A DNA stretch of 52,738 nucleotides. Origin: an uncultured Gammaproteobacteria bacterium. GTDB lineage: Bacteria; Patescibacteriota; Microgenomatia; Daviesbacterales; UBA10151. Each line of letters starts with the position of its first letter. The first letter of the stretch is position 1. Below the pieces are notes generated by a model. The model was not told the origin of the DNA. It saw only the letters and a program-made list of their open reading frames with translations, and ran no database searches. Positions 17,286 to 21,596 of this stretch are shown here, piece by piece. Both the position numbers and the translations under genes were made by a program. The DNA lies in NCBI GenBank assembly GCA_964649615.1, contig CAZYPW010000005.1, forward strand, positions 41,387 to 94,124, in the 5' to 3' direction.

Positions 17286-17792
17286 ATGATTGGGCAAACT
17301 TTGATCATCATTAAACCAGATGGAGTTAGTGGAGGCTTTACAGATGAAATTATCAAAAGATATGAAGCTGTAGGGCTTAAGGTAGTTAAAAGAATGGATT
17401 GTATGGCCCCACTTAATATTGTAGAAAAACACTATCCAATGGATCCAGAATATTTAAGGTCAATTGGAGAAAAAACTATTGCTGCAGGCCAAAAAGTGAC
17501 CTCAGCAGAAGATCAGGGTAGAAAAGTAGTGTCATGGCTTCGCAAATTTATTACCTCCGGTCCGGTGGTAGTAATGCTCCTGGAGGGGGAGGATGCAGTT
17601 AAACAGGCTCGTAAAACCAGTGGCTTTACCGATCCTGCAAGTGCAGAAAAAGGCACTATCAGGGGAGATTTGGGAACAGATAATATATTGGATGCCAATA
17701 GGGAAGAAAGACCGGTTTATAATTTAATTCATGCTTCAGGATCAGCTGATGAAGCTGCAAAAGAAATAAAATTGTGGTTTGGACAAAACTAG
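17286..17792 (+). CDS. ndk: Nucleoside-diphosphate kinase
   Basis: TLIIIKPDG, GTIRGD, NLIHAS catalytic His. Confidence 0.93.
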   Translation: MIGQTLIIIKPDGVSGGFTDEIIKRYEAVGLKVVKRMDCMAPLNIVEKHYPMDPEYLRSIGEKTIAAGQKVTSAEDQGRKVVSWLRKFITSGPVVVMLLEGEDAVKQARKTSGFTDPASAEKGTIRGDLGTDNILDANREERPVYNLIHASGSADEAAKEIKLWFGQN

Positions 17793-17856: not shown

Positions 17857-18102
17857 ATGAAAGATTTACAGTTTAAAGTGTTAATTGAACAAGATGAGGA
17901 CGGATGGTATATTGCAGAGGTGCCCGAGCTTCAGGGATGCTATACTCAAGGTAAAACTCTAGAGGAAGTACGAGAAAGAATTAAAGAAGTAATTAAACTT
18001 GTCCTGGAATCAGATAAAGAGGCCAAAAAGAGTAAGTTATCTTCCCCACAGCCACATTCTAAATTCTTTGCGGTTGAGGACATAAGCCTTCAGTATGCCT
18101 AA
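17857..18102 (+). CDS. hicB: HicB family antitoxin
   Basis: IEQDEDGWYIAEVPELQGCYTQGKTLEEV. Confidence 0.9.
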   Translation: MKDLQFKVLIEQDEDGWYIAEVPELQGCYTQGKTLEEVRERIKEVIKLVLESDKEAKKSKLSSPQPHSKFFAVEDISLQYA

Positions 18103-18319
18103 ACTGTCTCCAATCAATGCCACAAAACTTATCAAGATTCTTGCGAAGCAAGGGTTTATTAAGGTTCGTCAAAGTGGTAGTCATGCTAGGTTAGAGCATC
18201 CCGACGGTAGAAAAACTAGCATACCAGTTCATTCTGGAGAAAATGTCAGAGTGGGACTTCTAAGAAAAATCCTCAGAGACACAAATATCTCTCGTGATGA
18301 GTTTGAAACGCTAAAATAA
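18095..18319 (+). CDS. hicA: HicA family toxin
   Basis: GFIKVRQSGSH...IPVH...GLLRKIL; overlaps hicB. Confidence 0.9.
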   Translation: MPKLSPINATKLIKILAKQGFIKVRQSGSHARLEHPDGRKTSIPVHSGENVRVGLLRKILRDTNISRDEFETLK

Positions 18320-18358: not shown

Positions 18359-18775
18359 ATGAATACTGATGATCCTAAACAAGATGTTCCCCGGAGTACC
18401 TCTGAACCTACTCAAGATTCGGGCAATGACCAAAACCTGACAGATCAATGATTGAGGAAATTGTGGGTGATAAAGAAGTACCAATATTTCTAGATGAATG
18501 GTTAAAAAATGGACTTAACGCCAGCGCAGCCTACAAAGCTCTGCACCCCAATGCTAGTGATGCTTCAGCCAGAGTTTTAGGCTCAAAAAAGTTAACAAAG
18601 AATAACATTTCTGCTATTTTGGCAGGATATGATCTTGGGTACAGTGATTATATTCTGAGTCTTAAAGAGGGTTTAGTTGCTACGAAATTTAATGAACAAA
18701 CAGGAGAAAAAAGTACCAGATTATAGAACCAGGTTAGAGTATCATCGTATTCTTGGTAAATTATTAGGGTTTTAA
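18359..18775 (+). pseudogene. Frameshifted terminase-small-subunit-like gene
   Basis: ATG 18359 frame stops at 18451; 18448 frame has FLDEWLKNGLNASAAYKALHP..SARVLGSK; a third frame after the A6 run (18707-18712) reads VPDYRTRLEYHRILGKLLGF*. Confidence 0.55.
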
Positions 18776-18834: not shown

Positions 18835-20103
18835 ATGGCTGATGGTAGCAGTGGTCCCCCTCCTTCAGAGTTAGGTATCACACCTAAAGATTTAGGTATT
18901 AAACCAGGTAATCTGCCAGCACGACCACAGGAATTTGGACGAATAGACTTACAAGAAACACCGTATAGAACGGATGTTAGGGTTTTACAAGCTCAATATT
19001 TTCCAGAAGGTAAATATTTAAAAATAGCTGATGGATCAGAATATATCCTTGACGCCAATGGTAGAACGATTATCCTATTTGAAAAACCAACAGATAAAGG
19101 ATTCACTTCTGCTTACTCTCCCTTAACACCACAAGATTTAAGAAGAAAGTTAGCTACTTTACCAGAAGAGCAACAAAAAGAGCTTGCTGGGATGTTACAT
19201 TTACCTGATTTAAGCCCTGATAGCCTTCATACCACTCAAGCTACTGGGACTCTTGAGGATTTAATGTCGAGATTAAAGAGTAGAGCAAGCAGCGAAAGAA
19301 GGCCCCAAAGAGTAGCTGCAACAGACGCAGTAAGTAGAGATATACCACCTGATCTACCAGATAGTCATTTTGTTCAATTAAACCCGAAAGAGTATGCGGC
19401 AAGAAAAGCTGAGCAATGGGAAGCCGTAAGGGATCTTCCTGATAATGATCAACGTAAAATTCTCTACTTTAGAAGATTTACTCGAGAGTTTAGGTCTGGA
19501 GTACGATTTAATCCAGAACTCACTGCTTCTTCAGGAGATAACTTTAGATATTACGGGGTAGATACTTCTAGGGTAGGCGAACTACCTACGGTAGAAGCAT
19601 ATAGACCAACTATAGCGGTATCAGCAGGAAGAAAGATTGGTTTTGTGATCGGATACCATCATTTGGAAAAACCTTGGAGTAATTTATTCATGGAGATGTT
19701 TCAAAGACAAGTTCAATATTCCCCCGATCAGATAGAGTTTATTGTTATCCAGAATACAGATATTCCAACAGGTGATCGATCAATAGCCTCTGAGCGAGAA
19801 ATTCAACAAACAATCGCAGCAATGGGGATTACTGATATTATTGATGTTCACGAACAGCTTGCCATGTTAAATCATTATATGGATAGTACCAGAGCATCAG
19901 AGTTCAAAAATACTTTTAGAGCAGGAGGGAGTAAAAATCCTAATGGTGGAGAATATACACTTGATCCTTTTGTACCTCTTTGGGCTATAGAACAGTATTA
20001 CCAGGGTCATATATACCCGCAACTGCAAGATGCAATCAATGAACAGATTAAAAAAGCAGAGGTTTTAATAAAAGGCTTAGGTAACCCAGCGGCAAAAGCA
20101 TAG
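18835..20103 (+). CDS. Hypothetical protein; possible zinc-hydrolase-like C-terminus
   Basis: 422-aa ORF with TATAAT 7 nt before ATG; GYHHLE and IDVHE motifs. Confidence 0.65.
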   Translation: MADGSSGPPPSELGITPKDLGIKPGNLPARPQEFGRIDLQETPYRTDVRVLQAQYFPEGKYLKIADGSEYILDANGRTIILFEKPTDKGFTSAYSPLTPQDLRRKLATLPEEQQKELAGMLHLPDLSPDSLHTTQATGTLEDLMSRLKSRASSERRPQRVAATDAVSRDIPPDLPDSHFVQLNPKEYAARKAEQWEAVRDLPDNDQRKILYFRRFTREFRSGVRFNPELTASSGDNFRYYGVDTSRVGELPTVEAYRPTIAVSAGRKIGFVIGYHHLEKPWSNLFMEMFQRQVQYSPDQIEFIVIQNTDIPTGDRSIASEREIQQTIAAMGITDIIDVHEQLAMLNHYMDSTRASEFKNTFRAGGSKNPNGGEYTLDPFVPLWAIEQYYQGHIYPQLQDAINEQIKKAEVLIKGLGNPAAKA

Positions 20104-20293: not shown

Positions 20294-20517
20294 ACAATTG
20301 GTTTGCCAAATTTTATTAAGTTTTCTTTTTTCTCTCTTCTCCAGCCTTTAATTTGGGTTTCTCTTCTTCTGGCACCCAAAAGAGTTGGGAGAGTTTCAAT
20401 ATAAATAAGCTCAAAGGTTTTATTTCTTTTGGTAAATTCAGCACCATCACCGGATTTGTGTCTTAAGATTCTGCTATTGATATCATGAGTTACCCCTTTT
20501 AGTGCCCTTCGATAAGC
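20290..20517 (-). pseudogene. 5'-truncated GIY-YIG nuclease
   Basis: Hand translation GVTHDINSRILRHKSGDGAEFTK...ARRRETQIKGWRREKK; no start or GIY motif, upstream stop lies in a REP-like hairpin. Confidence 0.75.
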
Positions 20518-20593
20518 TCAGGGCCTTTCGACTCTATGCTATTCATCGGTCGAAGACCTTGAGTGAGGTCGATTTATCGACCGAATCGAAAGG
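20504..20593. repeat. REP-like GC-rich hairpins
   Basis: gcccttcgataagctcagggc (similar to 29783-29804) followed by cctttcga...tcgaaagg. Confidence 0.65.
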
Positions 20594-20665
20594 TCGGGGT
20601 GCTGGGAATTGAACCCAGTATCTCTGCGACCCGAACGCAGCGTGATACCGATTCACTACACCCCG
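20592..20665 (-). tRNA. tRNA-Pro(CGG)
   Basis: CGGGGTG acceptor, CTGCG-TT-CGG-GT-CGCAG anticodon arm, TTCAATT T-loop. Confidence 0.92.
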
Positions 20666-20710
20666 AATCCTTAGTAATTATACCTCCTGAAGTGTTAAAA
20701 TATAATATAT

Positions 20711-20911
20711 GCCGTTGTAGCTCACCGGATAAGCGGAGCTTGCAAAATTGGCCCTGTAGCTCAGTGGATAGAGCAATCCCGTCCTAAGGGAGAGGTCGTG
20801 AGTTCGACTCTCGCCAGGGCCGCCAATTTTGTAGAGCAACCCGTCCTTCTCCGCCAAAGGCGGAGGGTGTGTTAGGGGTAGGTTGGAGGTTCGATTCCTC
20901 TCAACGGCGCC
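20711..20911 (+). other. Interrupted outer tRNA-like gene (probably Arg-derived) enclosing tRNA-Arg(CCT)
   Basis: GCCGTTG (20711) pairs with CAACGGC (20902); canonical T-arm GGAGG-TTCGATT-CCTCT; the D-loop and anticodon loop both carry insertions. Confidence 0.65.
20750..20825 (+). tRNA. tRNA-Arg(CCT)
   Basis: GGCCCTG/CAGGGCC stem, GGATA D-loop, CCT anticodon, TTCGACT T-loop, encoded CCA. Confidence 0.9.
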
Positions 20912-20915
20912 CGCT

Positions 20916-21596
20916 ATGATTGATAATTTTAAATTTGTTTTACTAATTAGATTTGTAGGATATTTGGTATTTTTTACCGGCCTTTTGACCTTTTTATTTA
21001 TCTTAGGACCCTTAGTAAAAGCAGAAGCTGAGTATAGGATGGATAGAATTTTAGGAGTAAGAAGAACTGTGCCTAATATTATAACTTCTGATTCAGGGCA
21101 AACAGGATCTATGACTTCTTTTTCAGATTTAAAAGTTGATAATAACACTATTATCCCAGTTTCCACAGAATTTGGGATTGTGATTGAAAAGATTAATGCC
21201 AATGCTAAAATTGTAGCTAATGTTGATCCTGGCAATGAGAAAGAATATGCCCAGGCTTTAACTTTGGGAGTTGCTCAAGCGCAGGGCAGCACAGATCCTG
21301 GCCAGCCAGGTAACCTTTACCTATTTTCCCACTCCACAGATGCCCCCTGGAATATAATACGGTTTAATGCAGTTTTTTACCTTTTGAGAGAGTTAAATAA
21401 TGGTGATAGGGTGATTATTTTTTACAAAAACAAAAGATATGATTATATTGTCTATGATAAAACTGTAGTTTCACCCTCTGATGTAACTTATCTTACTAAT
21501 AGGTATGATGTGCCTGTTTTAACGCTGCAAACCTGTGATCCACCAGGAACTTTACTTAATAGGCTGGTGATTAGGGCAAAACTTGTTAATAGCTAG
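20916..21596 (+). CDS. Sortase
   Basis: LFSHS His motif, LTLQTC catalytic motif, downstream Arg; ATG 20916. Confidence 0.9.
   Translation: MIDNFKFVLLIRFVGYLVFFTGLLTFLFILGPLVKAEAEYRMDRILGVRRTVPNIITSDSGQTGSMTSFSDLKVDNNTIIPVSTEFGIVIEKINANAKIVANVDPGNEKEYAQALTLGVAQAQGSTDPGQPGNLYLFSHSTDAPWNIIRFNAVFYLLRELNNGDRVIIFYKNKRYDYIVYDKTVVSPSDVTYLTNRYDVPVLTLQTCDPPGTLLNRLVIRAKLVNS

Follow-up and report, generated by a model that had tools for sequence, protein, structure and literature searches.

Transfer RNA (tRNA) genes are usually regarded as fixed landmarks passed on by vertical descent, and as sites that undergo integration passively. Integrative elements target them and bring a replacement copy of the part that is displaced, intron homing co-converts the exons flanking the insertion, and the palindromic elements of the miniature inverted-repeat transposable element (MITE) and repetitive extragenic palindromic (REP)-like kinds are short and non-coding, with terminal inverted repeats and perhaps a short target duplication. 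In archaea, tRNA genes carry multiple and non-canonical introns, with intron transposition in the Thermoproteales, and split, tri-split and permuted tRNA genes have been described from Nanoarchaeum, Caldivirga and Cyanidioschyzon (PMC4033280). The splicing of tRNAs in bacteria is known only via group I introns, which reside in tRNA genes of cyanobacteria and some proteobacteria (PMC4033280, a 2014 review). The present analysis concerns a tRNA-Arg(CCT) locus within a stretch of 52,738 nucleotides (contig CAZYPW010000005.1 of assembly GCA_964649615.1; ~37% G+C), referred to below as the window, in which one complete tRNA-Arg(CCT) gene is nested in the D-loop of another. It is proposed, at a probability of roughly 0.6, that such nests result from invasion of the resident gene by a cassette at the DNA level, that the inner gene decodes while the outer gene erodes as a shell, and that the nests are intermediates in gene replacement. 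The searchable literature yielded no precedent for nested or disrupted bacterial tRNA genes or for tRNA introns of candidate-phyla-radiation bacteria, and the nesting would seem to be a route of tRNA gene replacement that has not been described before.

A tRNA-Arg(CCT) gene inside another

The nested arrangement was first put forward in a short note made from the sequence of the window alone, referred to here as the original prediction. The elements of the arrangement, as established here, are as follows.

20711-20731, plus strand: 5' piece of the outer gene (positions 1-21), with acceptor strand GCCGTTG, TA, D-stem strand GCTC and D-loop ACCGGATA
20732-20739, plus strand: left linker of the insert, AGCGGAGC, whose own GAGC is able to pair with the outer GCTC in the minimum free energy (MFE) fold
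20740-20749, plus strand: left arm of the flanking inverted repeat, TTGCAAAATT
20750-20825, plus strand: inner, intact tRNA-Arg(CCT) with encoded CCA (20823-20825), identified by ARAGORN, Rfam and homology
20825-20834, plus strand: right arm of the flanking inverted repeat, AATTTTGTAG
20834-20847, plus strand: middle piece of the outer gene, with D-stem 3' strand GAGC, A26, ACCC, G, T and CCT
20848-20873, plus strand: second insert, replacing outer A37, with the hairpin CTCCGCC-AAA-GGCGGAG (20849-20865) and the tail GGTGTGTT
20874-20909, plus strand: 3' piece of the outer gene (positions 38-73), with A, GGGGT, AGGTT, T-arm, acceptor strand CAACGGC and discriminator G

The complete inner tRNA-Arg(CCT) of the original prediction was recovered by both ARAGORN and Rfam; the gene body (20750-20822, or to 20825 with its CCA) scored 58.7 bits against RF00005, for which the gathering score is 29. 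A stand-alone gene at L039 (loci and contigs compared with the window are given as L numbers) is 90.5% identical to it. The outer gene was likewise borne out, with each of its elements at the coordinates given: a repeat search returned the perfect 7-bp acceptor stem GCCGTTG/CAACGGC (20711-20717/20902-20908), the T-arm has the canonical form GGAGG-TTCGATT-CCTCT, and removal of 20732-20833 re-formed the D-arm as GCTC-ACCGGATA-GAGC, upon which ARAGORN called a tRNA. Its span had been given as 20711-20911; the start is correct, but the gene ends at its discriminator G at 20909, and the letters that follow are CCC, not CCA.

Three lesions mark the outer gene. The first is the 102-nt insert in the D-loop (20732-20833), placed between positions 21 and 22. 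The second is a loss of 1 nt from the 5' strand of the anticodon stem (AACCCC or AATCCC to AACCC); alignment with 13 intact alleles leaves ACCC short of one C/T (an imperfect anticodon stem had been noted). The third is the 26-nt hairpin insert that stands in place of A37, next to the anticodon CCT (20845-20847); its arms CTCCGCC/GGCGGAG (20849-20855/20859-20865) were returned by the repeat search and confirm the predicted hairpin in the outer anticodon loop. In silico splicing, a check proposed at the outset, led ARAGORN to tRNA-Arg(CCT) when both inserts (20732-20833 and 20848-20873) were removed; despite this call, the doubly spliced gene still has an anticodon stem 1 nt short, and its A37 is missing or replaced. 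With a single splice, ARAGORN returned a tRNA-His(GTG) with a 22-nt intron, an artefact of its intron model that is overruled by homology and by the double splice, both of which give Arg(CCT). The analysis goes beyond the original prediction in that the outer gene is also a tRNA-Arg(CCT), the nesting is recurrent and reciprocal, and the flanking repeat covaries.

For comparison, 80 loci with the sortase gene found at 20916-21596 of the window were retrieved from relatives; the records that carry a lineage name are mostly Daviesbacteria. Synteny places the AT-rich window in Candidatus Daviesbacteria (Microgenomates, candidate phyla radiation). The usual layout in these relatives is a tRNA-Pro(CGG) gene on the minus strand, then a tRNA-Arg(CCT) gene on the plus strand, and then the sortase gene. 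The features of the window that surround the nest are:

20594-20665, minus strand: tRNA-Pro(CGG), a divergent neighbour; intact here, nested or fragmented in several relatives
20693-20701, plus strand: extended -10-like motif, TGTTAAAAT, before the outer 5' end
20916-21596, plus strand: sortase gene (Pfam PF04203), starting 6 nt past the outer discriminator

By crude motif classes, 79 tRNA-Arg(CCT) genes comprise 32 of type A, 11 of type B, 7 of type C and 29 others, and among related genomes the isoacceptor at this single locus comes in three or more strongly divergent alleles. Alignment found the type-B pattern GCCGTYG...CRACGGCG intact in 13 relatives, which present an intact orthologue of the outer gene at the same locus. 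The best match of the spliced outer gene to intact type-B genes is at 67/73 positions (L033 gene), and in BLAST comparisons its 5' piece is identical to the intact L002 gene at 20/21 nt and its 3' piece to the intact L005 gene at 37/38 nt, a homology that speaks against chance resemblance. In 42/68 relatives, a TGnTAnAAT motif ends 7-17 nt ahead of the tRNA-Arg gene; the motif of the window occupies the same spot, at which a strict sigma-70 scan gave no match. Between the 3' end of tRNA-Arg and the sortase start lie a median of 7 nt in the 68 relatives, and at most 12 nt in 39 of them; the sortase junction of the window is that of relatives with an intact tRNA. Its homology to intact type-B genes, the promoter-like motif ahead of it and the sortase junction behind it, both shared with relatives, identify the outer gene as the tRNA-Arg(CCT) resident at this locus, of type B.

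A census of the 52.7-kb window with ARAGORN and Rfam returned two tRNA genes, the tRNA-Pro(CGG) gene and the inner tRNA-Arg(CCT) gene. Because standard tRNA finders report only the inner gene, shells of this kind, and any genuinely interrupted tRNAs, are invisible in the annotation of candidate-phyla-radiation bacteria. The predicted fold of 20705-20915 (-85 kcal/mol, z = -3.0) is closed by the outer acceptor stem and includes the inner cloverleaf with its flanking helix, as well as the hairpin and the T-arm of the outer gene; the suggestion that the locus might be a structured RNA found no support beyond the fold itself. The alternative D-stem that the MFE fold builds with the GAGC of the insert was rejected as meaningful, since by eye it is not conserved in L056 and L059.

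Nests in relatives and the flanks of the cassette

Conservation in relatives had been named as a check on the nested reading, and it extends from the homology of the outer halves with intact genes to the nest itself: D-loop nests with homologous flanks are also present in L056, in L059 and on the metagenome contig L190. L059 has three levels, a type-C shell enclosing a type-B shell that in turn encloses an intact type-C gene; the anticodon arms of both shells are gone and their T-loops carry hairpin inserts. On L190, just the 5' pieces of two shells are left. The reverse nest, with an intact type-B gene at position 37/38 of a type-A gene, stands in L022 and L212. In six genomes, a tRNA-Pro(CGG) gene lies nested within another tRNA-Pro(CGG) gene or has pieces of one on its flanks:

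L022, 2567-2754, minus strand: tRNA-Pro nest
L059, 976-1229, minus strand: tRNA-Pro nest
L028, 2745-2869, minus strand: tRNA-Pro nest
L046, 2489-2638, minus strand: tRNA-Pro nest
L074, 2650-2900, minus strand: tRNA-Pro nest
L080, 2087-2217, plus strand: tRNA-Pro nest

Several of the Pro cassettes lie between GC-rich inverted repeats (CCTGCCCGCC/GGCGGGCAGG or variants), and most share the 3' flank ACAGA...TTGGCRGGCRGG; the Pro nest of L059 has a flanking helix of 18-19 bp and a duplicated segment that runs from the D-loop to the anticodon. An intact tRNA of the same anticodon lies inside every interrupted gene, in no case is the interrupted gene the sole copy, and an intact tRNA-Arg(CCT) is present in every relative with enough sequence upstream of the sortase gene. 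The shells form a decay series, with the deleted anticodon arms and invaded T-loops of L059, the loss of the 3' shells in L190 and L028, and a shell in L046 that is also decayed. The reading of the locus as a tRNA-in-tRNA relic, one of those offered in the original prediction, is upheld by a resident gene interrupted twice, by its 1-nt deletion and by the more eroded shells of relatives.

Genomes that bear nests are interspersed among nest-free ones. The closest relatives by sortase identity are P0003 (L211), with a plain type-A gene, and P0004 (L212), with type B inside type A; in P0002, of the same group, the gap from ndk to the sortase gene is too short for a nest. The sortases of L211 and L212 are 90% identical to each other, and that of the window is 77% identical to both. 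Because the sortases of L211 and L212 are this close and nests are scattered among nest-free genomes, the turnover of tRNA genes at the locus is judged to be fast. A metagenome scan with a single 17-mer, GTAGCTCAYYGGATAAG, gave many chance matches in coding DNA, and among the matches listed only L190 is relevant; scans of viral contigs for a phage-borne cassette gave chance matches only, on unrelated contigs (mostly GC-rich ones in the last two scans).

These nests also bear on whether the assembly of the window could have fused two strain variants of the tRNA-Arg locus into a chimera. The short Logan contigs L001 and L212 both break inside the nested tRNA, and assemblers therefore find the region repetitive. 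Against a chimera, L001 (SRR12113424), which comes from an independent Logan assembly, reproduces the inner-to-outer 3' junction base for base, its identity with the window taking in the inner T-arm, the 3' half of the outer gene and the junction with the sortase gene. Moreover, diverged and covarying nests are present in assemblies from other studies (L056, L059, L190), and the insert has flanks of its own that are absent from either plain allele. Misassembly, which the original prediction had named as a possible refutation, is thus very unlikely, and the least probable of the explanations weighed here.

The flanks of the insert are themselves conserved between nests. The left linker has the counterpart AGCAAAGC in L056 and is enlarged by a UUCG hairpin in L059 and L190. 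The inverted repeat that had been predicted to extend the inner acceptor stem was found by the repeat search to be perfect over 10 nt (CAAAATTGGC/GCCAATTTTG, 20743-20752/20822-20831); it is set in from the left end of the insert by 8 nt when counted to the helix, or by 11 nt when counted to the perfect repeat. The resulting helix adds 9-10 pairs to the inner acceptor stem across a 3-nt bulge of G73, C74 and C75. All 10 pairs of the helix form in each of the nests compared (window, L056 and L059), although three of them are altered on both sides. This compensatory behaviour equals that of the inner tRNA stems, in which 7/21 pairs are altered on both sides among the same three nests and pairing is held in all of them except at 27-43, which is non-standard in each. 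Pairing of leader with trailer as a general trait of tRNA genes at these loci was rejected: non-nested genes had a mean of 2.6 pairs versus 2.7 for shuffled sequences, with at least 6 pairs in 1/69. Because the helix covaries in nests and non-nested tRNAs have no above-chance pairing, the flanking helix can be taken as a conserved property of the cassette. Its upkeep points to structural selection, acting on RNA processing or on single-stranded DNA, or to template-switch mutation of a quasi-palindrome.

The second insert, the hairpin in the outer anticodon loop, has relatives as well. A homologue (CTCCGAC-GTAC-GTCGGAG GGCGTAT...) occupies the T-loop of the L059 type-C shell, a homologous tail is present at the same anticodon-loop site in L056, and the Arg and Pro shells of L059 share another pair of homologous T-loop inserts. 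The homologous loop inserts of L056 and L059 indicate that shell loops are a further place in which small hairpin elements settle. A search of the 52.7-kb window for another copy of the hairpin insert found none, the cassette flanks themselves lying outside that search.

The type-B alleles fall into two haplotypes, and the shell in the window is a mosaic of both. Haplotype B1 has T6/A67, the D-loop AATGGACA and the variable loop AGGTT; haplotype B2 has C6/G67, the D-loop ACCGGATA and the anticodon-stem strands AGCCC/GGGTT. The shell of the window is B1 in the acceptor, anticodon stem, variable loop and T-arm and B2 only in the 8-nt D-loop that touches the insert, with the two types meeting inside the 5' piece; a B2-type D-loop is also found in the other three D-loop nests. 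Since the shell is of the donor type only beside the insert and of the recipient type elsewhere, this pattern suggests a B2-type nest as the source of the cassette, which would have been transferred by recombination, the exon beside it being co-converted.

The apparently compensatory states seen in L056 (shell T-stem GTAGG/CCTAT and G1-U72) were considered as proof of selection on shells and rejected; the intact L023 allele already has them, and they are therefore no evidence of constraint. Type A, the commonest allele, has the T-loop TGCAATT, with a G in place of the near-universal U at position 55 (L003, L020, L061, L211 and about 28 others), and it is the only tRNA-Arg(CCT) gene in the stretch examined at those loci.

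Proposed gene replacement and its alternatives

As proposed here, a cassette of 102 nt, made up of the linker, the inverted repeat of 10 bp and, complete with its CCA, a tRNA-Arg(CCT) that stems from another lineage, would have inserted as DNA into the D-loop of the resident gene. The inner tRNA would presumably be transcribed from the resident promoter-like motif, since that motif precedes the 5' end of the outer gene, and ordinary 5' and 3' enzymes (RNase P and an exonuclease) would free it for decoding, with the outer halves remaining as a non-decoding shell. Disruption of the resident gene would be tolerated because the insert brings a tRNA of the same anticodon. The cassette family would spread between Daviesbacteria alleles by recombination and the shells would decay over time, and it is this erosion that would make the nests intermediates in tRNA gene replacement. 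They look like allele replacement caught in the act, in which the incoming tRNA, by standing inside the old gene, renders the insertion harmless. As the junctions have no bulge-helix-bulge (BHB) motif and Rfam gave no intron match, decoding most likely falls to the inner tRNA, and the outer gene is most likely no more than a shell. The original prediction had also offered an unusual processing substrate; this holds in the trivial sense that the inner tRNA would be cut from a transcript of the outer promoter, and splicing or ligation found no support.

Splicing enters the argument as the proposal that both tRNAs are functional, with the inner tRNA and the hairpin excised at the RNA level by RNase P/Z or RNase III and the exons ligated or held together as a split tRNA; bacteria would then have an equivalent of the multi-intron or split tRNAs of archaea. 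The exons are near intact, the second insert occupies the classical position after the anticodon, the nested tRNA of L022 and L212 is at 37/38, and the covarying flanking helices bring exon ends together. Nevertheless, no BHB motif is present at the junctions (L022 was inspected by eye); a strict hBHBh' scan of 20700-20925 returned 10 weak motifs, none of them at 20731/20732, 20833/20834 or 20847-20874, and Rfam intron families, including those of group I and II introns, gave no match at the gathering threshold or at E<=5, nor did any other family apart from that of tRNA itself. In addition, the anticodon stem is 1 nt short, a shell of L059 is devoid of its anticodon arm and that of L190 of its 3' half, interrupted genes are never the only copy, and bacterial tRNA splicing is known for group I introns only (PMC4033280). 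Removal of the inserts from RNA is thus regarded as highly improbable.

The short distance to the sortase gene raises a different possibility for the shell. The interval 20909-20918 cannot accommodate a Shine-Dalgarno sequence, and a search of 20400-21100 for terminator-like hairpins found none, which suggests that tRNA-Arg and the sortase gene are co-transcribed, with a near-leaderless mRNA produced via tRNA 3' processing. The top half of the shell, with its acceptor stem, T-arm and D-loop elbow, might accordingly be kept after the loss of decoding as an RNase P or RNase Z signal that trims the transcript and frees the sortase mRNA with a leader of ~6 nt, the flanking helix serving to close off the insert and so to let the shell fold. 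Consistent with such a role, 6 nt separate the outer discriminator from the sortase ATG, close to the median of 7 nt in relatives, and the region has the same lack of a terminator-like hairpin. The lesions of the window and of L056 are confined to the anticodon arm, which is dispensable for RNase P and RNase Z, CCC comes after the outer gene but CCA after the inner one, and the flanking helix covaries within a fold that closes with the outer acceptor stem. However, shells prove to be dispensable in relatives, with the 3' halves missing from L190 and L028, mismatches in the acceptor stems of Pro shells and invasion of the T-loops of L059; the apparently compensatory states of L056 occur already in the intact L023 gene, and the sortase genes of L056 and L022 start 29-55 nt past the shell. 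Retention of the shell as a processing signal is judged unlikely on balance.

Several observations nevertheless weigh against cassette invasion followed by passive erosion. The view of the genome is that of the 52.7-kb window, and a second tRNA-Arg(CCT) gene may lie elsewhere. The acceptor stem, D-loop and T-arm of the shell in the window are very well preserved, and its tRNA-like top half may keep some residual function; the covariation of the flanking helix would not be needed by a purely passive relic. The target duplication is ambiguous, being either TA, which borders the insert on the left and right in all three of the window, L056 and L059, or an AGAGC-like 5-mer (GGAGC/AGAGC in the window, AGAAC/AGAAC in L059). 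Finally, no transposase, integrase or homing nuclease was seen near any nest.

A protein-domain scan of the window covered seven ORFs (open reading frames) near the locus. The candidates for an insertion enzyme near the nests were HicAB, a fragment of a terminase small subunit, a 422-aa orphan, a PaaX-like winged helix-turn-helix plus Cas2-like protein (L059 and L190), an FMN reductase and a cohesin-domain protein; they were dismissed, there being no recombinase among them. In L059, this PaaX-like protein (1474-1974; 166 aa; PF20803, 2.9e-21) is encoded between tRNA-Pro and the triple tRNA-Arg nest, and in L190 a close homologue, as judged by eye, is encoded on the complement just upstream of the nest.

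Described systems and the surroundings of the locus

Among described systems, archaeal tRNA introns resemble the nests in that inserts lie in the D-loop and beside the anticodon, related inserts occupy different tRNAs and positions, and pairing flanks place the exon ends side by side. The nests differ from them in occurring in a bacterium, in having no BHB motif, in that the insert is a complete tRNA of the same anticodon, and in that the exons decay and get lost. With split and permuted tRNA genes they share halves that stand apart in the genome and complementary sequences beside those halves; unlike them, the halves are colinear, on one strand and within 200 nt of each other, with a whole tRNA between them, no BHB motif and no sign of joining. 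Group I introns offer the parallels of insertion into bacterial tRNA genes, patchy distribution and donor-type exon beside the insert, as after homing. In contrast to these introns, which measure about 200 nt or more, the inserts are of 102 and 26 nt and have neither a ribozyme core nor an Rfam match; no homing endonuclease gene was seen, and the host gene is replaced by the cargo rather than restored by splicing.

The MITE and REP-like elements are comparable in their shortness, their inverted repeats and a possible target duplication, and the arms CCTGCCCGCC/GGCGGGCAGG of Pro cassettes also occur as stand-alone hairpins. They differ in that the nests have a tRNA gene as cargo and arms that covary, with no transposase seen near them; in a multi-copy test of the 52.7-kb window, the hairpin insert was single and two tRNA genes were called.

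Like integrative elements, the insert supplies sequence that keeps the tRNA functional and lies at a hot spot with attachment site (att)-like ends. It differs from them in its size of ~100 nt, in the lack of an integrase, in carrying a whole tRNA and not a 3' part, and in leaving the old halves on both sides. The nests could instead be leftovers of integrase-driven islands, formed through serial integration and deletion with fragments nested by chance. Duplicated, att-like 3' ends of tRNA-Pro (57-73 or 34-73) are present in L020, L050, L051, L057, L063 and L080, a type-B tRNA-Arg of L048 (2800-2946) has a 16-nt duplicate of its 3' end 58 nt downstream that resembles an att remnant, and the 2.8-kb islet of the window, with HicAB and a terminase fragment, adjoins the 3' end of tRNA-Pro; on account of the att-like duplicated 3' ends in relatives, the locus is a recombination hot spot. 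The expected product of an integrase, however, is a complete gene, an island and a displaced 3' fragment, and not a whole gene set between a 5' and a 3' piece, all in the space of 200 nt; an integrase was not seen near the nests, and the same 100-nt cassette with homologous flanks occurs in distant genomes. The D-loop is not known to be a usual target of integrases. Island remnants are accordingly considered improbable.

Cassette invasion of the resident gene may be extended, tentatively and with more doubt than conviction, to a general proposal. A family of ~100-nt, hairpin-bounded cassettes with a whole tRNA as cargo would home into the D- and anticodon loops of cognate tRNA genes and spread between alleles by recombination, giving rise to Russian-doll genes and serial allele replacement; shells and invading hairpin elements may keep a tRNA-like processing role for a time. 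Such a family would belong to Daviesbacteria and perhaps to other candidate-phyla-radiation bacteria. If truly mobile, the cassettes would be smaller than any mobile unit with a gene as cargo that is known from bacteria, and disrupted tRNA genes would have a new origin beyond the archaea and eukaryotes.

On the far side of tRNA-Pro, the islet of the window occupies the 2.8 kb between ndk (17286-17792) and the tRNA-Pro 3' end. It comprises HicB/HicA (17857-18319), a 92-aa terminase-small-subunit-like fragment (18448-18726) and the 422-aa orphan ORF (18835-20103), which is without a Pfam or PHROG match; an att-like tRNA repeat bounding the islet was not found in the window. In L030, ndk directly abuts tRNA-Pro. 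In L020 and L036, two conserved hairpins, CGTACAGAATC...GATTCTTACGTGG and GGAGCGT...ACGCTCC, lie 3' of tRNA-Arg and occupy the ~70 nt from that gene, with its encoded CCA, to the sortase gene. When introns were allowed, ARAGORN returned a tRNA-Asn(ATT) with a 53-nt intron in L065 (2094-2238), which is probably a false positive.

The GC-rich palindrome of the Pro cassettes, CCTGCCYGCC-GGCRGGCAGG, stands alone in intergenic positions of L007 (~541), L015 (~1340 and ~3765), L035 (~4544) and L071 (~5317). The copy in L007, with a T-run after it, looks like an intrinsic terminator, and the palindrome may be a REP-like dispersed element. Partial tRNA-Pro copies also occur in tandem: on the minus strand of L067 (1-270), the complete gene is preceded by three copies of the initial ~20 nt of tRNA-Pro with ~35-nt spacers, and on the minus strand of L075 (1-215) by two such copies with ~110-nt spacers.

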